Source: Octopus vulgaris (taxonomy: Eukaryota). From it: DNA of 64,000 nt. Made by a program: the position numbers and the translations under genes. Positions 1,986 through 56,044 of this stretch are shown in pieces. The notes below the pieces were generated by a model, which was not told the origin of the DNA, made no database searches, and was given only the letters and a program-made list of their open reading frames with translations. Location of the stretch: assembly GCA_951406725.2 (NCBI GenBank), contig OX597814.1, positions 29,264,001 to 29,328,000 of the forward strand, read 5' to 3'. Each line of letters starts with the position of its first letter. Within the stretch, counting starts at the first letter, position 1.

Positions 1986-3267
1986 ACTCTATATTTCATT
2001 TAATTATTGAAGTTAATTTAATATTTGTTTAATTTAGAAGTAGCTTCCTCTGGTTCGGAAAAACGGTAATCCGGAGATGATTTGGGATTAAATGTTCCGG
2101 AAAATTGATGTTGTACTCGTATATATTTTCTGATTTTACACAGATATTCTCTTGATTGTGATTTTTCAAAGGGTTTACTTAGTTTCTTTAACGTACTTCT
2201 TTTCCTAGCTTCGCACCAAATCAATTTTTGTAGGTTAACATATGGATTGCTCCCGTGCTAAACATTCGTTTCCAGCTTAGAAAGTCAAACTTTTTTTAGA
2301 ACACGAGATTGTGTGATGTTCATTCTTTTGTCCAACCATTAGCAACATAATTGAAGTGACATTCCGAGATCTTATCTATTAATCTACGACGTTCGCTATT
2401 CTATGTTGGATATTATGAAACGATGTTGTTGCTAAGTGTAATAATTCTTAGGCACTGCATTCGGAAATATCTAAATAGCGCAACACGATGATTCATAGAA
2501 ATGTTAATCTTATACGCATCAACATACGTCACTTGTAAGACATGAATAATTCCTATACTTGTCCCTATTGGTTGGTCAGCAGTTTTCTAATACTAAATAC
2601 AGATTTCAATATGGCCTGTGTGCTCCCAAGTATTAGCTGAAACTAATTTTTGTTGTTGTTCTTTTGTAACTGTCTTGAGTGATGTGTCTAATTCTGTATT
2701 TGTATGAATTATATGAACTTCATGCACTCCATTTGTCTAAACGTGAGGCATATGGCTCTTAAACCTTTTTGATATTGAAATGTTTTCTCCGTAAGAAAGA
2801 AAACAAAGGAAGGAAGGAGGGAAGGAAAGAAGGAAGGAAGGAAGGGGGAAGAAAGCATGTAGGAGATAGCGAAATAACTGAAAAATGACTACGTTATTTT
2901 TGGTTTAATTTAACTGACATTCGCTGGTTGAAACGCAAAATCAGAGATTAAAGTGTCATAAAATGATTAGTTCTGATTTTTATGTTAATCCACTGACACG
3001 ATTAATTGAGTGAGCTTGTTTTAGTGTTAGAGTTAAGTCTTTGGTTCACTTGAACTTCATTGTTACAGTACATGCAACTAAACTGCTCTGTAACTTTAAA
3101 TAATAGTATGATTAAGATTGTGACATCTCTACATAACCACTTTTTATTGCTTAAGTCAAAACATAACCGGAACACTACCAGTTTACTCCTGTAACCTAAT
3201 ATTTTGGTTAACTATTCCTCAAGTATAGTTAATCCAGTATAGTTAACCAAAGAATCACATATTCTAT

Positions 3268-3690
3268 ACGCGCAGGAGTGGCTGTGAGGGAAGTAGCTTG
3301 CTTAACAACCACATGGTTCCGGGTTCAGTCCCACTGCGTGGCACCTTGGACAAGCGTCTTCTACTATAGCCTCGAGCCGACCAAAGCCTTGTGAGTGGAT
3401 TTGGTAGACGGAAACTGAATGAAGCCCGTCTTATATGTATGTATGTGTGTGAGAGAGAGAGAGTGTGTGTGTGTTTGCATGTCTGTGTTTGTCCCTCCTC
3501 CCACCATCGCTTGACAACCGATGCTGGTGTGTTTACGTCCCCGTAACTTAGCAGTTCGGCAAAAGAGACCGATAGAATAAGTAGTAGGCTTACAAAGAAT
3601 AAGTCCTGCAGTCGATTTGTTCGACTAAAGGCGGTGCTCCAGCATGGCCGCAGTCAAATGACTGAAACAAATTAAAGAAAGAAAAGAAAG
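3268..3690 (+). mobile_element. SINE family A
   Basis: Same head, body and tail as the other family A copies. Confidence 0.9.
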
Positions 3691-6319: not shown

Positions 6320-6980
6320 GATGTTCATCTTGATGAAAATAAGACAAAATTGCTGTTATGAAGTCAGCTCTGTGCATCTTTTGCGCAATTTTGGTTAACT
6401 ATTCCTCAAGTATAGTTAATCCAGTATAGTTAACCAAAGAATCACATATTCTATACGCGCAGGAGTGGCTGTGAGGGAAGTAGCTTGCTTAACAACCACA
6501 TGGTTCCGGGTTCAGTCCCACTGCGTGGCACCTTGGACAAGCGTCTTCTACTATAGCCTCGAGCCGACCAAAGCCTTGTGAGTGGATTTGGTAGAGAGAA
6601 ACTGAATGAAGCCCGTCTTTTATGTATGTATGTGTGTGTGAGAGAGAGAGAGTGTGTGTGTGTTTGCATGTCTGTGTTTGTCCCTCCTCCCACCATCGCT
6701 TGACAACCAATGCTGGTATGTTTACGTCCCCGTAACTTAGCAGTTCGGCAAAAGAGGCCGATAGAATAAGTACCAGACAAAAAATGGGTTCTACACATCT
6801 GAAGGTGTTCCATGCAGTGGCTGTACCGCTGTGACGCACGAAAACATTTTGGTGAAGCGAAACTGAGTTAAATGAAGTTTATGGTCACTGTATAGTGTTC
6901 GATAAGCTGGATCCTGGCGAAATCCTCAAAGCAGAGAAATATTGCCAGGAAATCGACAAAATGCAAAAAGAACTGCAACA
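6320..6980 (+). pseudogene. Degraded mariner (Hsmar1/SETMAR-like) transposase, 5' part, interrupted at 6388-6771
   Basis: Manual translation across frameshifts gives CCYEVSSVHLLRN, DKKWVL, QWLYRCDARKHF, KFMVTV and LDPGEILKAEKYCQEIDKMQKELQ. These match mariner FEVSSSLILRN, DEKWILY, KVMVTVWW and LNPGETITxEKY motifs. Confidence 0.75.
6388..6771 (+). repeat. Local duplicate of 3201-3582 (unique flank plus 3'-truncated SINE A) inserted into the mariner
   Basis: Identical 66-bp upstream flank and shared SINE variants (GTGAGGGAAG, CTTAACAACC, GGACAAGCG). Confidence 0.9.
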
Positions 6981-7017
6981 GGCGCAGGAGTGGCTGTGTG
7001 GTAAGTAGCTTGCTAAC
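6981..7017 (+). mobile_element. 5' portion (A-box side) of the SINE A copy split by the element array
   Basis: GGCGCAGGAGTGGCTGTGTGGTAAGTAGCTTGCTAAC; the SINE resumes at 15231. Confidence 0.9.
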
Positions 7018-8994
7018 TGCGCATGTGCGAGTCAGTGTTGTGTTTGCTACTGAAGCAGTGAAGATGTGCTTTTGAAGCCGTCTTGAATTGAAACTTTGGA
7101 AGCCCCATGTAAGGTAAGATTCTGTTTTCTGTGTCCAGTGGGAGTTTTTGTTGAGAATTATTTTTTACATGCAGGAAGTCCTACTGGATTCAGAATTCTG
7201 ATTCTGCCGACATGTGGCAGATATATTTTTCTCGCTGAGAAAATTTTGGGGGGCGTATCCGTCTTCGAATTGTGAAAATTGTATGGTGCTGTGAAGAACT
7301 ACCAATTTTACACCAATTTTTGTGGAAGTTGTGCGATCCTGGTTCGATTTAGGCCGGGAGTACCAAATGGCCAAAAGGATTTTGCTGTGTTTTTGACTTT
7401 CTTTTTAACTTTATTTGACTTTCTTTTCAACTTTATTTGACTCTCTCCGTTTTTCATTGTGACATTCTTCGGATTTCCTTTTCTTCTCGTTTTTTAGTTT
7501 TATTCTAAATACATTTATTTAAAAAAAAAAAACAAAAAAAAACATGGCAACAAAAGAAACCACCGCTTTGGAATGGGAGGTCGTCCCACCAAGCAGTGGA
7601 TTGAAAGTCTTGAGAAGAGGACGGTGGTCCTACGAACCTATTCTAGGTCGCGTGGAGCCATTGCCCTCTTCGACAAGAATACTATAGAGAAAGAGTTGGG
7701 GGACTACCTGCCAACTATAAAATTTATTTCTCGGGGGAGTAAATTTGCAACGGTCTGGTTGCTGTTTGGTACCCCCGAGGAAGCTAGCAGATTTGCTAGC
7801 GAGCCACTGGAGGGAGAGGAAATTTTGTTCCTCCCCTCGTATTGTGGCAGAAAAGTGAAAAGAGCCTGGGTGTGTGGGCTGCCCCCGGGCATGGAGGCGG
7901 AATGGATCGAAAAGACCATCCGGCGAGGCCTGGGGGATAGCGGACCCAGACTGCTGAGTGTGAAGGTGGCTCCCGCGGTCGCCTGGCAGGGGTCGAGGGC
8001 AACCTTGACCCTGTGGACACCGGTAGCCGTGGGGCAAATGAAATTCCCGGACTTCCTGAGAATGGCTGGGCACAGGTACCCGGTGATACTCGAGGGTCGC
8101 CCCCCAAGTGTCACCTGTGCCTGAAGCCCGGACATATCAGGAAGAATTGTCCCAGGGGCCGTAGTGGTGCCCCGGAGCAGAGAGGGGAAAAGGCGCCCGC
8201 CGCCCCCTCATTGGAGGGGGAGACGATGGAAGTCGTGGAGGAGGTTGCCTCCACGAAAAGAAGAGAAAGGCGAGCAACAATGGTTGCCCGCCAAAGAACG
8301 CTCAGGGGGCGAAGGGGGATAGCAATCCCCCGTGTCTGGTGACGGAGTCCCCTGGGTCAGCAGTCTCCCCCAAAAGAAGGAGGAGAAAAAGGAGAGGTCG
8401 GACGACTGACGTTTCTGTGTCGCCGACGGAGCCGCGGGTGGGATATGTGCCACCCGCGGACAAGGCTCCGCCAGTGGGAAGTGTGCCACCGACGGAGCAG
8501 TGTGAGGTCCCTCCCTGTGAAGAGGAGATGCTTCTCCTCCTCTACCACAAGGGAGAGGAGGTTGAAAGATTCTTGAATGGCTTGGGTGACCGAGAGCGTA
8601 AGGACACGGTCGGCTCAAGGAGTCCGTTATGGCCTCCGCAGGTAGCTGCGGAAAAAGTAACAGAAGATACTTTGTCAAGGGTCGCAGAGACCTTTGAAAA
8701 GAAAGACTTTACCTTTCTCTTTGCAGGCCCCGACTTGTCGTCGCAGAGTTGTCTGCAGGCGGCAAGACAATTTGCTTCGGGGACCTGACGAGAAGAATTG
8801 TTGAACATTTTTTTTGAATCATTGTTTATTAAATGTATTTATTGAAACATTGTTTTAGAGAAGCAAAAGTCGGCGGGCGCTTTCGACTTCTCCCATCACC
8901 ATCTTCATCAACCACCACCATCATCCATTAATGTCCTTGTCCAGCCCGTAGCTACTACTCTGTGTGCTGCCCTAGTGGCAAATTATTTAAAATA
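7018..8994 (+). mobile_element. ORF1-only, SINE-inserted element, unit 1 (subfamily I)
   Basis: Bounded by AAGTAGCTTGCTAAC at 7003-7017 and 8995-9009; near-identical to units 2 and 3. Confidence 0.85.
7544..8788 (+). CDS. Tx1/L1-type ORF1 (gag-like) CCHC zinc-knuckle protein, 3 single-base frameshifts
   Basis: Joined frames read MATKETTALEW...EGRPPKCHLCLKPGHIRKNC...ARQFASGT*. 1245 nt plus 3 missing homopolymer bases gives 1248 nt (415 aa). Confidence 0.75.
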
Positions 8995-9009
8995 AAGTAG
9001 CTTGCTAAC

Positions 9010-10979
9010 TGCGCATGTGCGAGTCAGTGTTGTGTTTGCTACTGAAGCAGTGAAGATGTGCTTTTGAAGCCGTCTTGAATTGAAACTTTGGAAGCCCCAT
9101 GTAAGGTAAGATTCTGTTTTCTGGGTCCAGTGGGAGTTTTTGTTGAGAATTATTTTTTACATGCAGGAAGTCCTACTGGATTCAGAATTCTGATTCTGCC
9201 GACATGTGGCAGATATATTTTTCTCGCTGAGAAAATTTTGGGGGCGTATCCGTCTTCGAATTGTGAAAATTGTATGGTGCTGTGAAGAACTACCAATTTT
9301 ACACCAATTTATGTGGAAGTTGTGCGATCCTGGTTCGATTTAGGCCGGGAGTACCAAATGGCCAAAAGGATTTTGCTGTGTTTTTGACTTTCTTTTTAAC
9401 TTTATTTGACTTTCTTTTCAACTTTATTTGACTCTCTCCGTTTTTCATTGTGACATTCTTCGGATTTCCTTTTCTTCTCGTTTTTTAGTTTTATTCTAAA
9501 TACATTTATTTAAAAAAAAAAAAAAAAAAAACATGGCAACAAAAGATACCACCGCTTTGGAATGGGAGGTCGTCCCACCCAAGCAGTGGATTGAAAGTCT
9601 TGAGAAGAGGACGGTGGTCCTACGAACCTATTCTAGGTCGCGTGGAGCCATTGCCCTCTTCGACAAGAATACTATAGAGAAAGAGTTGGGGGACTACCTG
9701 CCAACTATAAAATTTATTTCTCGGGGAGTAAATTTGCAACGGTCTGGTTGCTGTTTGGTACCCCCGAGGAAGCTAGCAGATTTGCTAGCGAGCCACTGGA
9801 GGGAGAGGAAATTTTGTTCCTCCCCTCGTATTGTGGCAGAAAAGTGAAAAGAGCCTGGGTGTGTGGGCTGCCCCCGGGCACGGAGGCGGAATGGATCGAG
9901 AAGACCATCCGGCGAGGCCTGGGGGATAGCGGACCCAGACTGCTGAGTGTGAAGGTGGCTCCCGCGGTCGCCTGGCAGGGGTCGAGGGCAACTTTGACCC
10001 TGTGGACACCGATAGCCGTGGGGGAAATGAAATTCCCGGACTTCCTGAGAATGGCTGGGCACAGGTACCCGGTGATACTCGAGGGTCGCCCCCCCAAGTG
10101 TCACCTGTGCCTGAAGCCCGGACATATCAGGAAGAATTGTCCCAGGGGCCGTAGTGGTGCCCCGGAGCAGAGAGGGAAAAGGCGCCCGCCGCCCCCTCAT
10201 TGGAGGGGGAGACGATGGAAGTCGTGGAGGAGGTTGCCTCCACGAAAAGAAAGAGAAAGGCGAGCAACAATGGTTGCCCGCCAAAGAACGCTCAGGGGGC
10301 GAAGGGGGATAGCAATCCCCCGTGTCTGGTGACGGAGTCCCCTGGGTCAGCAGTCTCCCCCAAAAGAAGGAGGAGAAAAAGGAGAGGTCGGACGACTGAC
10401 GTTTCTGTGTCGCCGACGGAGCCGCGGGTGGGATGTGTGCCACCCGCGGACAAGGCTCCGCCAGTAGGAAGTGTGCCACCGACGGAGCAGTGTGAGGTCC
10501 CTCCCTGTGAAGAGGAGATGCTTCTCCTCCTTTACCACAAGGGAGAGGAGGTTGAAAGATTCTTGAATGGCTTGGGTGACCGAGAGCGTAAGGACACGGT
10601 CGGCTCAAGGAGTCCGTTATGGCCTCCGCAGGTAGCTGCGGAAAAAGTAACAGAAGATACTTTGTCAAGGGTCGCAGAGACCTTTGAAAAGAAAGACTTT
10701 ACCTTTCTCTTTGCAGGCCCCGACTTGTCGTCGCAGAGTTGTCTGCAGGCGGCAAGACAATTTGCTTCGGGGACCTGACGAGAAGAATTGTTGAACAATT
10801 TTTGAACATTTTATTAAATGTATTTATTGAAACATTGTTTTAGAGAAGCGAAAGTCGGCGGGCGCTTTCGACTTCTCCCATCACCATCTTCATCCACCAC
10901 CACCATCATCCATTAATGTCCTTGTCCAGCCCGTAGCTACTACTCTGTGTGCTGCCCTAGTGGCAAATTATATAAAATA
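9010..10979 (+). mobile_element. ORF1-only element, unit 2 (subfamily I)
   Basis: Target 15-mer at 8995-9009 and 10980-10994. Confidence 0.85.
9533..10778 (+). CDS. ORF1-like CCHC zinc-knuckle protein, 2 single-base frameshifts
   Basis: ORFs 9533, 9748 and 10200 join; 1246 nt plus 2 missing G in G-runs gives 1248 nt. CX2CX4HX4C motif present. Confidence 0.75.
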
Positions 10980-10994
10980 AAGTAGCTTGCTAAC

Positions 10995-12974
10995 TGCGCA
11001 TGTGCGAGTCAGTGTTGTGTTTGCTACTGAAGCAGTGAAGATGTGCTTTTGAAGCCGTCTTGAATTGAAACTTTGGAAGCCCCATGTAAGGTAAGATTCT
11101 GTTTTCTGTGTCCAGTGGGAGTTTTTGTTGAGAATTATTTTTTACATGCAGGAAGTCCTACTGGATTCAGAATTCTGATTCTGCCGACATGTGGGAAATA
11201 TATTTTTCTCGCTGAGAAAATTTTGGGGGGCGTATCCGTCTTCGAATTGTGAAAATTGCATGGTGCTGTGAAGAACTACCAATTTTACACCAATTTTTGT
11301 GGAAGTTGTGCGATCCTGGTTCGATTTAGGCCGGGAGTACCAAATGGCCAAAAGGATTTTGCTGTGTTTTTGACTTTCTTTTTAACTTTATTTGACTTTC
11401 TTTTCAACTTTATTTGACTCTCTCCGTTTTTCATTGTGACATTCTTCGGATTTCCTTTTCTTCTCGTTTTTTAGTTTTATTCTAAATACATTTATTTAAA
11501 AAAAAACAAAAAAACATGGCAACAAAAGAAACCACCGCTTTGGAATGGGAGGTCGTCCCACCCAAGCAGTGGATTGAAAGTCTTGAGAAGAGGACGGTGG
11601 TCCTACGAACCTATTCTAGGTCGCGTGGAGCCATTGCCCTCTTCGACAAGAATACTATAGAGAAAGAGTTGGGGGACTACCTGCCAACTATAAAATTTAT
11701 TTCTCGGGGAGTAAATTTGCAACGGTCTGGTTGCTGTTTGGTACCCCCGAGGAAGCTAGCAGATTTGCTAGCGAGCCACTGGAGGGAGAGGAAATTTTGT
11801 TCCTCCCCTCGTATTGTGGCAGAAAAGTGAAAAGAGCCTGGGTGTGTGGGCTGCCCCCGGGCACGGAGGCGGAATGGATCGAGAAGACCATCCGGCGAGG
11901 CCTGGGGGATAGCGGACCCAGACTGCTGAGTGTGAAGGTGGCTCCCGCGGTCGCCTGGCAGGGGTCGAGGGCAACTTTGACCCTGTGGACACCGATAGCC
12001 GTGGGGGAAATGAAATTCCCGGACTTCCTGAGAATGGCTGGGCACAGGTACCCGGTGATACTCGAGGGTCGCCCCCCCAAGTGTCACCTGTGCCTGAAGC
12101 CCGGACATATCAGGAAGAATTGTCCCAGGGGCCGTAGTGGTGCCCCGGAGCAGAGAGGGGAAAAGGCGCCCGCCGCCCCCTCATTGGAGGGGGAGACGAT
12201 GGAAGTCGTGGAGGAGGTTGCCTCCACGAAAAGAAAGAGAAAGGCGAGCAACAATGGTTGCCCGCCAAAGAACGCTCAGGGGGCGAAGGGGGATAGCAAT
12301 CCCCCGTGTCTGGTGACGGAGTCCCCTGGGTCAGCAGTCTCCCCCAAAAGAAGGAGGAGAAAAAGGAGAGGTCGGACGACTGACGTTTCTGTGTCGCCGA
12401 CGGAGCCGCGGGTGGGATGTGTGCCACCCGCGGACAAGGCTCCGCCAGTAGGAAGTGTGCCACCGACGGAGCAGTGTGAGGTCCCTCCCTGTGAAGAGGA
12501 GATGCTTCTCCTCCTTTACCACAAGGGAGAGGAGGTTGAAAGATTCTTGAATGGCTTGGGTGACCGAGAGCGTAAGGACACGGTCGGCTCAAGGAGTCCG
12601 TTATGGCCTCCGCAGGTAGCTGCGGAAAAAGTAACAGAAGATACTTTGTCAAGGGTCGCAGAGACCTTTGAAAAGAAAGACTTTACCTTTCTCTTTGCAG
12701 GCCCCGACTTGTCGTCGCAGAGTTGTCTGCAGGCGGCAAGACAATTTGCTTCGGGGACCTGACGAGAAGAATTGTTGAACATTTTTATGTAATTTGAATC
12801 ATTGTTTATTAAATGTATTTATTGAAACATTGTTTTAGAGAAGCAAAAGTCGGCGGGCGCTTTCGACTTCTCCCATCACCATCTTCATCCACCACCACCA
12901 TCATCCATTAATGTCCTTGTCCAGCCCGTAGCTACTACTCTGTGTGCTGCCCTAGTGGCAAATTATATAAAATA
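10995..12974 (+). mobile_element. ORF1-only element, unit 3 (subfamily I)
   Basis: Target 15-mer at 10980-10994 and 12975-12989. Confidence 0.85.
11516..12762 (+). CDS. ORF1-like CCHC zinc-knuckle protein, 1 frameshift (G-run near 11706)
   Basis: ORFs 11516 and 11731 (343 aa) join; 1247 nt plus 1 gives 1248 nt. Confidence 0.8.
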
Positions 12975-12992
12975 AAGTAGCTTGCTAACCAG

Positions 12993-15230
12993 ACATGCGC
13001 AGTTAGTCGGTTGCTTCCTGTTGAGCTAGAGTGGACGTGAGTAACAAGCTTTGTCCAACTAAAGAAAAAAGACCAAAAACGGAAAGTTGTCGAGGTAAGT
13101 GATTTTGTTTATTGTGAGTTGGGCATAATTTATTGCGTGCCAATTATTATTTCAGTAGGTTGTGTCCAACTCTGAGACAATTTCGCCTGCGCTAGGCGGC
13201 TGCCGTTTTTGTGTTCATTGAAAAAAAAAAAAAAAAAAGAAAAAACAGTGGAGGGGCGTATCCTCAGAATTCAATACAGTTACTGTTAAAATCACCGTTG
13301 GCGGTAGCCAGTGCTGTGTTTGGATTTGTTGAATTTATTCCCTTGTCAGAGTACTTCGCAAGAAAAGTATAAAAATAAGCCACTATTGGATTACCTTTCG
13401 GACCCTTTTTGTGGAGGTTGTGTTGCAGTTGCGGTGTTCCAGGTTCAACCCAGGCCGGGAGTACCGCAAGGCCAGAATATTTTTGCTGTGTTTTTTCTGT
13501 TTATTAACTTTCTTTTGAACTTCATTTACCCCCCCCCTTTTGTTTTTTCTTTATTGCGACTTTCCGTTAATTTCTTCCCTTCTGTTGTGCTTTCTCCTTT
13601 TTGTTTTTTCAAAAATCTATCAAATTTATTTAGACTTTTGAACTTTTTTCTTCCTGCTTTTGAGTCTAATTTGAATATATTTTTAAAAAACATGGCAATG
13701 AAAAATAACAAAGTTTTGGAGTGGGAAATCATACCACCCAAAAAGTGGTTGAAGGACCGTGAAGATAGGACGGTGGTGTTGAGAACCTACTCCAAGGCAC
13801 TTGACACCATCGCCCTATTCGAAAAGACGGCAATTGAGGAGGAGTTGGAGGAGTATTTGCCAACAATTAAATTCATTTCCAGGGGTGTCAAATATGGAAC
13901 GGTGTGGTTGCTGTTTGACACCCCTGAAGAGGCTTGCAAATTTGCTAGCGAACCCTTGGAGGGTAAGGAAATCTTATTCCTGCCCACTTACAAAAAAAAG
14001 AAATTGATGAAAGCTTGGATCTGCGGACTGCCACCCGACATAGAACCCGAGTGGATAGAGGAGACTATCCGCCGGGGTCTGGGTGACAGCGAAACTAAGC
14101 TCCTCAATGTAAAAGTTCTTCCTGCGGCTGCTTGGGTTGGCTCGAAAGCAGTTTTGACCCTGTGGACCCAATCAGCCAATCTGGTTTTCCAGATTTTTTG
14201 AAAATGGCCGGGTGCAGGTACCCGGTGATGCTTGAGGGTCGCCCCCCTAAGTGTCATCGGTGCTTGGAGTCCGGCCACATAAAGAAGAACTGTCCTCGGG
14301 AACAAAATAGGATCCCGGAACAGTTACGTAAAACCCCTCTAGAAGAGGGAACGATAACGGCCGAGAAAGCAGAGGACTCCTCAAGCAGAGGCCGAAAGAG
14401 GAAGGTGAGCAACAATGGGTGCTCACCAAAGGATAATAGGGATGAGGAGAGGAGGGCGAATCTTCCAGCCACGGAGGAGACGCACCCTCCCTCAGTTGAA
14501 AAGGAAAAAAAAAGAAAAAGAGGAAGAAAAACGGGACGTTGCCGGCTGTCAGTGTGGCACCGGAATGTCGCGGAACTACGTCGGTTGGGGTTGTGCCACC
14601 GACAAGAGAAGGAATACCGTTGGCGGAAACTGTGCCGCCAACGAAAGAACTGAATGTATTGGTCCTCTTCTATAGAGGAGGAGAAATTGAAAAAGTGATG
14701 GAAGAGCACTACAAGGGAGCACCTTTAGCCTTCACACAGGACCCCGAATGGCCTCCGCAGGTAGCTGTGGAGGCCGTGGCGTTCGACGTGACGCTAGGGC
14801 TAAAGGAGCTCAATGAAGACTATAACTTGGTCCCGGGCGACGCGAACTCGGAACTTGACTACGTTCTGAGGGAGGCGTGGTTGATGGTGGAGGGCGCGGG
14901 CACAAGCTATTTCGAGGACGATATGTATTATTAGTAATGGACTTAAGTCCAAAAATTGAAAAATTGTAAGAGGATTAATACCTCGTTTTGTATTAATAAT
15001 GGACTGCTAAGCCCAAAATTGGAAAAATTGTAAGAGGTTTAATACCTCGTTTTGTGTTAATCTTTTTAAAAAGAACAATGTTTTAGAGAAGCAAAAGTCG
15101 GCGGGCGCTTTCTGTCTTCTCCCATCCTTATCATCTTTCTTTCATTATCATTCACCTCATTAATGTCCTCGTCCAGCCCGCAAAGCTAACTTAATCTGTG
15201 TACTGCCTTTATGGCAAATGTTTTGAAATA
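12993..15230 (+). mobile_element. ORF1-only element, unit 4 (divergent subfamily II)
   Basis: Flanked by AAGTAGCTTGCTAACCAG (12975-12992) and AAGTAGCTTGCTTACCAG (15231-15248); ORF and UTR blocks homologous to units 1-3. Confidence 0.85.
13692..14934 (+). CDS. Paralogous ORF1-like CCHC zinc-knuckle protein, 2 frameshifts (~414 aa)
   Basis: MAMKNNKVLEWEIIPPKKW...RTVVLRTYS...EGRPPKCHRCLESGHIKKNC...WPPQVAVEAV, collinear with units 1-3. Confidence 0.75.
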
Positions 15231-15371
15231 AAGTAGCTTGCTTACCAGCCACATGGTTCCGGGTTCAGTTCCACTGCGTGGCATCTTGGGCAAGTGTCTT
15301 CTGCTATAGCCCCGGGCCAACCTATGCTTTGTGAGTGGATTTGGTAGACGGAAACTGAAAGAAGCCTGTCG

Positions 15372-15408
<37 letters not shown>

Positions 15409-15618
15409 ATGTGTTTGTGTGTCTGTGTTTGTCCCCCTAGCATTGCTTGACAACCGATGCTGGTGTGTTTACGTCCCCGTCACTTAGCGGTTCGGCGAAA
15501 GAGACCGATAGAATAAGTACTGGGCTTACAAAGAATAAGTCCCGGGGTTGAGTTGCTCGACTAAAAAGGCGGTGCTCCAGCATGGCCGCAGTCAAATGAC
15601 TGAAACAAGTAAAAGAGT
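15231..15618 (+). mobile_element. 3' portion of the split SINE A (B-box, body, tail)
   Basis: Continues the head sequence from 7003 onward and ends GACTGAAACAAGTAAAAGAG. Confidence 0.9.
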
Positions 15619-29491: not shown

Positions 29492-29910
29492 AAATACCTA
29501 TTTCTTTACTACCCACAAGGGGCTAAACACAGAGGGGACAAACAAGGACAGACATAGGTATTAAGTCGAATACATCGACCCCAGTGTGTAACTGGTACTT
29601 ATTTAATCGACCCCGAAAGGATGAAAGGCAAAGTCGACCTCGGCGGTATTTGAACACAGAACGTAGCGGCAGACGAAATACCTATTTCTTTACTACCCAC
29701 AAGGGGCTAAACACAGAGAGGACAAACAAGGACAGACAAACGGATTAAGTCGATTATATCGACCCCAGTGCGAAACTGGTACTTAATTTATCGACCCCGA
29801 AAGGATGAAAGGCAAAGTCGACCTCGGCAGAATTTGAACTCACAACGTAACGCAGACGAAATACCGCTAAGCATTTCGCCCGGCGTGCTAACGTTTCTGC
29901 CAGGTCGCCA
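29492..29910 (-). mobile_element. SINE family C (2 units)
   Basis: Reverse complement of family C head and body. Confidence 0.85.
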
Positions 29911-30949
29911 CCCAACAAATACCGCTTTATCCTTACTATCAAGAACAATATCCATCTTTCAGCCGTGACCTCAGACTTATTGACGAAGGGAAACAAAACT
30001 GAAATGAAACACCGCAATGGGGAGACAACCAGGTGGGGGGGCCAATCGAGGAATTCCACAAATGCCGGATTATCCTTACTACCAATTGCAAGATCGTCTT
30101 CAAACTATAATCCTAGGTCTGTTACATAAAGACATTCATCTGACGCATTTTCGCTACTCTCGCCCACTCTCAGTCAAGCATCAAGCTTTCCTTATTTCCC
30201 TATTCATCTTCCTCTCATTCCAAATTGCATCTGAAGAAACTAATGAAGGCCTGGCCAGATAGGCAGGTGTCTTTTATTAAACATTTCAATCATGTTCACT
30301 GAATTGCGTCTTTAACCATAGCAACCGGAGAGGGGAAAATTGACTGCCTTTCTCAACCAAAGGCAGATGATGAAGCGATCTTCCGAAAGAACTAAATTTA
30401 CAGCTTGGGTCCATATTAATCGCAACAGTGTCTCGACATAATCTCACAAGTCAGCAATGCTCGGACAAATATTTGAAGGACAATTTCGTCGCTGTGCACG
30501 CATTTTAAACATTTTCCAGCTGTCTGCGATTCTGCACTCTCAAGAACAGTGCCAAACAACGGAGTTTGGTGAAGTTGTTCGTAATTTTTGATTTGAAAAT
30601 CCTCCGGAATAGATTACTCAGATTACATTGATGTTTAGCATTTTTTTTACCATTCATTCTCTACTATAGAATACGAGCAGTAACGTCCCACCTAGTGCAT
30701 TTTGCAACTAGTCAATGACTGTGAGCGTCTGACAGCACTCCAGATACCAGACACCCAAAATTGATCTACTCTTAATTCTAGACTAAAGCTCCGTCAAGGG
30801 AACTAGTTGTGAGAAAGTGGTTCTCACAAATGATGGCCACATTTCCTCACATTCTAGGAAACCGATAGATGTCAAGCATCAACGCATACCACCATTCACG
30901 GAAATAATAATAATGTCAACCCTTATCGTACTTAAGAATTTTCTTCTTC

Positions 30950-38249: not shown

Positions 38250-38995
38250 GAAGGCGCATAACTTAGTGGCTAAGATATTCAGCTTAAGATCGCAGGTCGT
38301 GAGTTCGCTTCCTGACATGCGTTGTGTCCTTGAGCAAGACACTCTATTTCACGTGGTTCCAGTCGACCCTGCTGGCAAAAATGAGTTGTACCTGTAATTC
38401 AAAGGGCCAGCCTTGTCGCATCCTGTGTCACGATAAATCTTCCTGAGAACTACATTACGGGTATACGTGTCTGTAAGGCGGCGAGCAGGCAGAATCGTTA
38501 GCACGCCGGGCGAAATGCTTAGCAGTATTTCATCTGCCTTTACGTTCTGAGTTCAAATTCCGCCGAGGTCGACTTTGCCTTTCATCCTTTCTGGGGCGAT
38601 TAAATAAGTACCAGTTACGCACTGGAGTCGATATAATAGACTTAATCCGTTTGTCTGTCCTTGTTTGTCCTCTCTGTGTTTAGCTCCTTGTGGGTAGTAA
38701 AGAAATAGGTATTTCGTCTGCCGCTACGTTCTGAGTTCAAATTCCGCCGAAGTCGACTTTACCTTTCATCCTTTCGGGATCGTGAAATTAAGTACCAGTG
38801 ACGCACTGGGATCGATGTAATCGACTTAATCCGTTTGTCTGTACTTGTTTGTCCCCTATATGTTTAGCCCCTTGTGGGTAGTAAAGAAACAGGTATACGT
38901 GTCTGTGGGATGCTCAGCACGTTGATTTCACAAGCAGGCTGTTCCGTTGATCGGATCAACTGGAACACTCGTCGTCGTAACCGATGGAGTACCAG
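38250..38995 (+). mobile_element. Diverged family B-related SINE containing a nested family C SINE (38476-38891)
   Basis: TSD GGTATACGTGTCTGT at 38460-38474 and 38892-38906; the host SINE continues afterwards. Confidence 0.8.
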
Positions 38996-55349: not shown

Positions 55350-56044
55350 CTCGTAGGATGAGTTTCTGGATCTTAAGAACCTTCCGGTCCAGAGAACAAG
55401 GTGTTATCATACCACTTTTCTCCTCCCTTGTACGGCCACACCTTGAATACTGCTGCCCACTGTGGTCTCCCCATACAAAACAAAACATCTCGAGGATTGA
55501 ATCACCCCAGAGGGCACTCACTAAACGAATTGAAGGCATGGCTGCACTCGATTATTGGGACCGCCTTAAAGCCTTGAAACTCTACACTCTCCAGCGCCGC
55601 CATGAGCAGTACATCATTTGTACGATGTGGAGAATATACCGCCAACTTTGCCCAAACGACCTGAACATTAGTTTCAAGGTTCATCCAAGACTGGGACCAC
55701 GGGCCATACGTCCCCTGCCCAATTCAAGATCACACCATATATGTACACTGCAACATAATTTCTTTTCCTCAGCAAGCCCTGCCCTATTTAACATTGTCCC
55801 GAAAGAGATCAAAGAGGAAAAGGATCCCATCAACTTTAAACGGAGTCTGGATAGATTCCTTCAAGGAATACCAGATAAGCCACCCATAATTGGATATAAC
55901 TCACCCAACAAAAACTCACTACTTGAATGGACCATAAACAAAACTTGACTTAAACAGGATTTAGATAATCCTCTCAGGTGGTGCTATTAAGTTAGACATG
56001 GCCTGGACCAATCTTTGGTCGAAACACATATAAGTTTTATATAA

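Follow-up and report, generated by a model that had tools for sequence, protein, structure and literature searches.

Target-specific L1/Tx1-type retrotransposition into a SINE head, with probably dependent ORF1-only families, in Octopus vulgaris

Results

Four elements stacked inside one SINE

We analysed a 64,000-nucleotide stretch of the Octopus vulgaris genome (GenBank assembly GCA_951406725.2, contig OX597814.1, positions 29,264,001 to 29,328,000, forward strand; hereafter the window), in which a short interspersed nuclear element (SINE) is broken between an A-box-like and a B-box-like motif by four head-to-tail units, three of a family that we call A and one of a second family, B (Table 1). 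The two motifs were assigned by eye from the box consensus. The same 15-nucleotide sequence (the 15-mer) stands at all five junctions, exact at the first four and with one mismatch at the last. The window contains 10 matches to it with up to two mismatches, against 0.14 expected from shuffles; the remaining five all lie in SINE heads, of which the four inspected in context are uninterrupted SINE copies, and the copy at 6478 continues into SINE body. When the array was excised in silico and its flanks were joined, the product was 93% identical to the empty SINE at 1985-1563. These junctions and the rejoined SINE bear out a sequence-only reading of the window, which had proposed ~2-kb units stacked within one SINE between the box-like motifs, with the 15-mer at every junction and once in each empty SINE.

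Counted through the end of the next 15-mer, units U1, U2, U3 and U4 measure 1992, 1985, 1995 and 2256 bp. Family-A units U1-U3 are 99.2-99.6% identical to one another over aligned bases, and U4 (family B) matches them at ~75% identity with many gaps. Each unit had been proposed to encode one ~415-amino acid (aa) CCHC-knuckle protein and neither reverse transcriptase (RT) nor endonuclease. As to the enzymes this stands, since tblastn with the second open reading frame (ORF2) of the autonomous element C described below found no match inside the array and only a weak remnant near 30.7 kb in the window; the proteins, however, are all interrupted, none of the four frames being intact as assembled (Table 1). 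An intact family-A ORF of 415 aa was found elsewhere in the genome (locus L062), and many dispersed copies have open frames of 416-430 aa. Public sequencing runs show single-base differences from the window at one family-B frame break, so some of the breaks may be assembly errors or alleles. The public runs also contain array sequence, and contigs from one run span two of its junctions.

Table 1 Features of the array and its host SINE (positions in the window)
Feature	Positions	Strand	Remarks
SINE head, 5′ part	6981..7002	+	A-box-like motif 6991-7001; matches empty SINE heads
Upstream 15-mer	7003..7017	+	Bases 10-15 belong to the element family as a tag and do not copy the local target
U1, family A, ORF1-only	7018..8994	+	ORF remnant 7544-8788, three frame changes
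Junction 15-mer	8995..9009	+	Tail AAATA plus first 15-mer bases give AATAAA
U2, family A	9010..10979	+	ORF remnant 9533-10778, two frame changes
Junction 15-mer	10980..10994	+	
U3, family A	10995..12974	+	ORF remnant 11516-12762, one frame change; two RRM-like domains, CCHC knuckle, low-complexity basic C-terminal half
3′ tail of U3	12947..12974	+	4-bp hairpin TGCC-n5-GGCA, then AT-rich to AAATA; no poly(A)
Junction 15-mer	12975..12989	+	
U4, family B, ORF1-only	12990..15230	+	ORF remnant 13692-14934, two frame changes
64-bp tandem duplication in U4 3′ untranslated region	14929-15061	+	
Downstream 15-mer	15231..15245	+	Original SINE allele, ends GCTTAC; one mismatch
Remainder of host SINE	15246..15618	+	B-box-like motif 15262-15272, TA/TG microsatellite, 3′ body

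The SINE head is a genome-wide target

The empty 33-nucleotide (nt) site of this SINE has at least 33,162 and 30,131 exact genome matches in two alleles, a roughly even split. Using an A/B-type tail pattern that contained no target sequence, we found 328 of 361 3′ tails genome-wide to be followed exactly by AAGTAG, and a looser pattern of tail plus target gave 1094 matches against 1 for its reversed control. Off-consensus tails that we inspected lie at degenerate SINE sites, at a second SINE position or in broken copies; at locus L160, a tail occupies another position of this SINE, one likewise starting with AAGT. The downstream SINE alleles vary from locus to locus, which indicates independent insertions into existing SINEs rather than one composite copied together with its SINE. 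The SINE-head site is thus a real target of A/B-type elements. Dispersed copies sit at one SINE position, as had been predicted, and not in random flanks, and the proportion of tails at the SINE site supports the idea of non-autonomous, protein-coding elements with an abundant SINE as landing pad. The host SINE head may be related to glycine tRNA; ARAGORN found no tRNA gene in the window, and Rfam found no tRNA either.

An autonomous element at the same site

Reading beyond A units, we found between the same SINE junctions a 5.45-kb element, C, with an ORF1 followed by an ORF2 that encodes an apurinic/apyrimidinic endonuclease (APE), an RT and a zinc finger. Matches of ORF2 to RVT_1 (PF00078, E 9e-28), Exo_endo_phos (PF03372, 4e-12) and zf-RVT (PF13966, 1e-8) are all above the Pfam cut-off, as is that of the separate ORF1 to a CCHC knuckle (zf-CCHC, E 2.5e-4). 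The best solved match of ORF2 is human L1 ORF2p (E 8.5e-67; R2 5e-20), which places C in the L1/Tx1 group; homolog searches for named Tx1 reference elements gave none, and we call C L1/Tx1-type on its likeness to L1 ORF2p. The best 70 of the 150 RT matches scored share at least 92% identity, several of them in open frames of 1140-1150 aa, so C appears young and is probably competent for retrotransposition. C ends at the SINE site on its 3′ side at 9/9 examined loci, running into the 15-mer and SINE body, and on its 5′ side at 8/9; these loci were chosen for holding RT and were inspected as junction pieces, and so they carry little information on truncation of C. At 7 loci, C directly follows an A unit. 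Three RT matches 5455 bp apart (G000 C9:2666220-2677612) suggested a tandem array of C itself.

A longer relative of the window elements had been predicted from the array. C has the APE-RT ORF2, the tail and the target expected of it, but its ORF1 is only 29% identical to that of A over 191 aa (E 2e-23), with the homology in the RRM region. A sister autonomous family (L241, L242; G000 C29:28.02 Mb, C8:114.67 Mb), whose RT is 81% and ORF1 40% identical to those of C, has (CT)n flanks at 2/2 loci, ORF2 frames of 1138 aa and a similar tail end. Taken together, C and this sister family point to a target switch within one lineage.

Several ORF1-only families share a short tail

The same junctions also enclose families D (1.5 kb), E/G, F, H and others, with many mosaics in which the head of one family sits on the body or tail of another. 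Among the first 30 of the 1094 junctions, 6 lie in ORF2-bearing elements, 20 match ORF1 less than 1.5 kb from the tail and the remaining 4 resemble neither. In another set of 30 loci, the 3′ junction, wherever it was visible, lay 1.37-1.48 kb past the ORF start region. The sequence-only reading had taken the array for one family with two subfamilies: A and B do use the same site, but the array belongs to a multi-family system.

In blastn comparisons of short families D, B and A/B mosaics with C, likeness is confined to the last ~40 nt. In each of the seven SINE-targeting families examined, this tail folds into a 4-bp hairpin, of which both sides are changed in E/G. The tails lack poly(A). An AATAAA motif is completed where tail meets target, so that the RNA may extend slightly into target sequence. 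Two unusual loci carry the tail: at L140, a miniature B copy of 113 bp, flanked by normal junctions, retains 48 nt of the head and 43 nt of the tail, and at L123, the shared tail stands at the normal SINE site but is preceded by ~700 nt that are unrelated and might derive from a foreign RNA or element that used the tail to move.

The upstream 15-mer carries a family tag

We compared the two 15-mers of 54 single insertions with both junctions in SINE, drawn from 40 tail-selected, 13 ORF-selected and 8 C loci. The downstream copy varies like the SINE allele, and the upstream copy tracks the family. For A, B and C heads, the downstream copy differs from GCTAAC in 15/31 insertions, and in those 15 the upstream copy equals GCTAAC in 12 and the downstream copy in 2. 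For F heads, the upstream 15-mer is one base shorter in 19/22 insertions, a form present in 0/22 downstream copies. The 15-mer is therefore only partly a target duplication, and the end of its upstream copy is borne by the element: the tag travels with the family, as in R2. The 15-mer is repeated on both sides, as a 15-18-bp duplication of the expected kind would be; in the upstream copy, however, bases 10-15 go with the family and not with the local target. Conversely, the possibility that the 15-mer is an element terminus unrelated to the SINE is right only for that element-borne part, since the SINE context holds.

Of 40 loci selected by tail alone, 36 retain a 5′ head at a junction and are full length; an RNA that starts inside the target fits this rarity of 5′ truncation. 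A SINE-head variant nine bases 5′ of the 15-mer is present in 4/22 F insertions and two others (L194, L197, L198, L201, L211, L084) and in 0/19 empty heads. The RNA tag may sometimes reach further upstream than the 15-mer, from a shared SINE-head variant.

How arrays grow

Family A behaves differently from B at its 3′ end. Of all 58 exact A tails followed by AAGTAG, 42 are joined to another element's head, 12 to SINE body and 4 to other sequence (3 of them via a junction-like 15-mer). Counted by locus, A tails end directly in SINE at 12/40, and mostly B-type tails enter SINE body at 36/40. A is nearly always the upstream partner, ahead of at least six different families and of both C head variants. 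With ~1,100 filled junctions and more than 63,000 exact empty sites, stacking by chance is very unlikely.

These counts would suit array growth mainly by read-through, in which an A transcript runs through the next unit and the composite is reverse-transcribed from the last tail, A being a 5′ hitchhiker, sometimes in cis on C. Three A+B pairs (contigs C1, C5 and C9) with nearly identical A and B haplotypes fit it as well, and the youngest B clade contains every one of the 8 B units found in arrays. However, A and B distances are uncorrelated over 8 A+B pairs (Mantel r 0.14, p 0.18), and the variety of elements that follow A would require many independent joinings anyway. We regard read-through as a serious contender for the main route, at somewhat less than even odds.

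Alternatively, a single A insertion in the window could have been multiplied locally through tandem duplication or unequal crossing-over, site specificity then governing first insertions only. The >99% identity of U1-U3 is what this would produce, and some arrays contain identical or sister neighbours (C1:223.7 Mb, C5:78.7 Mb) or a junction variant common along the array. In the tree of A units, however, U1 and U2 fall in different well-supported clades (97/93, 100/99) with units of other chromosomes, and U3 lies outside both; moreover, local duplication alone cannot yield mixed-family arrays. We consider this origin unlikely for the window. Overall, three processes probably operate in array growth: repeated insertion, read-through transposition of pairs and local duplication.

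ORF1 is old, diverged and under selection

Structure prediction of the ORF1 protein (predicted local distance difference test score, pLDDT, 83) gave two RRM-like domains and the knuckle in its N-terminal half. Foldseek and VIA returned generic RRM proteins, the best being La protein (Z 9.5, root-mean-square deviation 2.9, 83 aligned); L1 ORF1p is absent among the structural matches listed, and a search of solved structures with ORF1 gave only weak zinc-knuckle matches. Named ORF1 homologs come from Octopus and Argonauta, and an O. vulgaris protein named 'EPM2A-interacting 1-like' (P0037), which matches the ORF1 profile at E 3e-57, is probably a mis-named transposon product.

The ORF1 tree unites A, B, F and H, together with an O. 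sinensis protein, in one long-branched clade (100/100). The D ORF1 lies outside this clade and is 40-43% identical to those of the two autonomous families; on this sequence evidence, D appears to have arisen independently of the A/B/F/H group. The ratio of nonsynonymous to synonymous substitution (dN/dS) is 0.11-0.27 in 10/10 pairs among A, B, F1, F2 and H ORF1. Divergence together with selection argues for lineages that are old and have retained ORF1, rather than for recent deletions of C. That the units are instead internal-deletion leftovers of C with an unselected ORF1 might be thought from the four frameshifted window ORFs and from internally deleted copies with intact ends, such as the 113-bp B remnant; we judge it very improbable given the low identity of A and C ORF1, the separate clade on its long branch, the dN/dS values and the many open frames of 416-430 aa.

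Feature similarity to clusters of ZCCHC3-like RNA-binding proteins (score 0.90, rank 8) might suggest a host gene cluster, but this, like an assembly artefact, is hardly credible, as dispersed copies with identical junctions inside the SINE lie on many contigs, which also contradicts a single-copy cluster, the units differ mutually and public-run contigs cross two junctions.

5′ regions and other repeats

The otherwise diverged 5′ untranslated regions of A and B have in common a stem-loop with a 7-nt loop like a tRNA T-loop or B-box (7331-7365, with equivalents in U2 and U3, and 13430-13470 in U4), which was not found in C, D, E, F and G representatives. Heads of A, B, D and G start with a GCGCATG-type motif (7018-7030 and 12990-13002 in the window), which resembles an NRF1/Ewg site and might serve as an internal Pol II promoter element. 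A GGT(A/G)AG-type donor-like site is found in A, B, C, F and G heads, and one AG acceptor-like site in A and B lies 42-59 nt 5′ of the ATG. There was no splice joint in this region among the joints listed, and two contigs of run X1, whose RNA status is a guess, cross it unspliced. None of the public runs that contain the sequence is on record as RNA, which speaks neither for nor against expression.

Elsewhere in the window, a 385-bp sequence containing a SINE head and flank is duplicated at 98% identity (3201-3583 and 6388-6772), and a second abundant repeat has a 184-bp internal tandem unit (721-1212, 29492-29865 and 38525-38896). The segment at 55358-55948 resembles the C-terminal part of other long interspersed nuclear element (LINE) ORF2 proteins and has no Pfam match; that at 30663-30854 is a LINE ORF2 C-terminal-like remnant with a weak match to C ORF2.

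Discussion

A proposed mechanism

We propose, with a probability of about 80%, that a C-type element targets the SINE head and that the ORF1-only families A, B, D, E/G, F and H exploit the same site through the shared tail, using C ORF2 in trans and a target-tagged RNA. C inserts specifically into the head of the abundant SINE, as its junctions show. The ORF1-only families would borrow C ORF2 in trans, and each family's own ORF1 RNA-binding protein, which is under selection, would package that family's own RNA. From the junction geometry, we would place the bottom-strand nick where the 15-mer begins and the start of reverse transcription at the tail. By analogy with R2, the element RNA would start within target sequence and the cDNA end would anneal to the target, which would account for the uniform full-length 5′ junctions and for the copying of the donor's version of the 15-mer. 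Since an insertion leaves the upstream SINE and 15-mer intact, the site can be hit again. For the A-A-A-B order in the window, B most likely would have come first, with A copies from different donors then added in front.

Several points weigh against this proposal. Trans-mobilisation, the nick position, the RNA ends and the packaging role of ORF1 are steps that we infer, beside the site use, shared tail, ORF1 selection and family tag that we observe. Over positions 1-9, the 15-mer varies too little (3 and 4 variants in 486 bases, none shared) to tell target from element sequence, and in 2/15 cases the target allele is retained on both sides. Synonymous divergence exceeds 1, near saturation, in 9/10 ORF1 pairs. 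The A units differ by less than 1% and show mosaic patterns, which makes A trees weak, and some arrays have clearly been shaped in part by local duplication or conversion. Finally, a single 5.9-kb B-C chimera (L118; G000 C4:127358763, minus strand), which follows B almost to the tail and C from just before ORF2, places a B-type ORF1 ahead of C ORF2; an autonomous family with an A/B-like ORF1, beyond those sampled, is a conceivable alternative helper.

More tentatively, and with the odds somewhat against us, we suggest a layered parasite system on one SINE. An old clade of half-elements with diverged ORF1 would depend on one helper ORF2 via a 40-nt tail. In all members the RNA would bear target sequence at its 5′ terminus, and probably at its 3′ terminus too through a target-completed poly(A) signal, letting an APE-type element insert precisely and at full length. 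A would specialise on occupied sites, docking ahead of other elements, the helper included, and being co-transcribed or co-mobilised with them.

Relation to known systems

Several known retrotransposons resemble parts of this system. HAL1 elements are dispersed, have poly(A) tails and are not known to have a fixed target; the HeT-A group is Jockey-type and telomeric; and R2 uses a restriction-like nuclease. The comparisons that follow draw on parts of the cited papers.

Tx1-clade elements target multicopy sequences: Tx1 inserts into Tx1D, Tx1-Mar into Mariner-N4_AMi, Keno into U2, and Kibi and Koshi into microsatellites (Kojima 2015, PMC4494074). The APE-RT element C, at a fixed position in another multicopy repeat, resembles them, and its (CT)n-flanked sister family resembles Kibi in particular. 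Unlike the octopus SINE head, the Tx1 targets given there are DNA transposons, long terminal repeat elements, small nuclear RNA and 5S genes, satellites and microsatellites (PMC4494074). SINEU-3 is a dependent family that shares its target and forms tandem insertions around a duplication (PMC4494074); the octopus dependents are protein-coding and comprise several old families.

HAL1 elements, described from mammals, are non-autonomous, encode ORF1 only and have multiple origins (Kojima 2018, PMC5753468). A, B and their relatives likewise encode ORF1 only, homologous to L1-group ORF1 and under selection, but they are site-specific, lack poly(A) and are arrayed with their helper; they are HAL1-like in working and not HAL1 members. 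HeT-A, which lacks pol, forms head-to-tail mixed arrays with the RT-coding partners TART and TAHRE (PMC5537684); the octopus arrays differ in lying at internal SINE sites on many contigs, with an L1-group helper and no sign of a host function.

R2 RNA that keeps upstream 28S sequence has been proposed to anneal to the target, giving uniform 5′ junctions and propagating junction variants (Eickbush et al. 2013, PMC3774820), and the F-family junction variant similarly propagates through the element. Unlike R2, with its single ORF and hepatitis delta virus (HDV)-like ribozyme (PMC3774820), C has two ORFs and an APE, and a home-made, unvalidated descriptor of HDV-like ribozymes gave 0 matches in 7 family heads. 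No Rfam ribozyme family was found at E up to 5, and the Rfam matches were sub-threshold only.

Bonar et al. (2026, PMC13282606) catalogue 80 consensus families of L1-Tx1 repeats in O. vulgaris and count 13 as recently active, and the elements described here may be within this automated library; the main-text parts and supplement examined mention no target specificity, ORF1-only structure or arrays. The parts examined of two further papers (PMC8869645, PMC8967140) contain nothing that bears on a SINE-targeting ORF1-only system. We found no report of a SINE-targeting Tx1 element or of a site-specific ORF1-only family in a literature search that did not cover subscription journals, Repbase Reports or Dfam, and the supplements of PMC4494074 may list further Tx1 targets. 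Thus the parts have precedents in Tx1 repeat targeting, HAL1, HeT-A and R2, and what appears new, in that we found no such report, is their combination with a SINE landing site, HAL1-like dependents and R2-like tagged 5′ junctions.

Implications

The octopus genome holds a real, genome-wide system of target-specific L1/Tx1-type retrotransposition with ORF1-only dependents. Several families with selected but very different ORF1 proteins, apparently served by one helper, offer a natural test of why elements that borrow ORF2 keep ORF1. Second-strand joining in APE-type elements is poorly understood, and here such an element would join R2 as a case of target-tagged RNA with uniform 5′ junctions. 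C and its sister family, with two apparent targets and RTs 81% identical, are a useful pair for mapping a change in APE endonuclease specificity. A site-specific and seldom truncated retrotransposon is also of interest for RNA-templated gene insertion. Furthermore, the mixed arrays show that site-specific insertion is able to seed tandem repeats.

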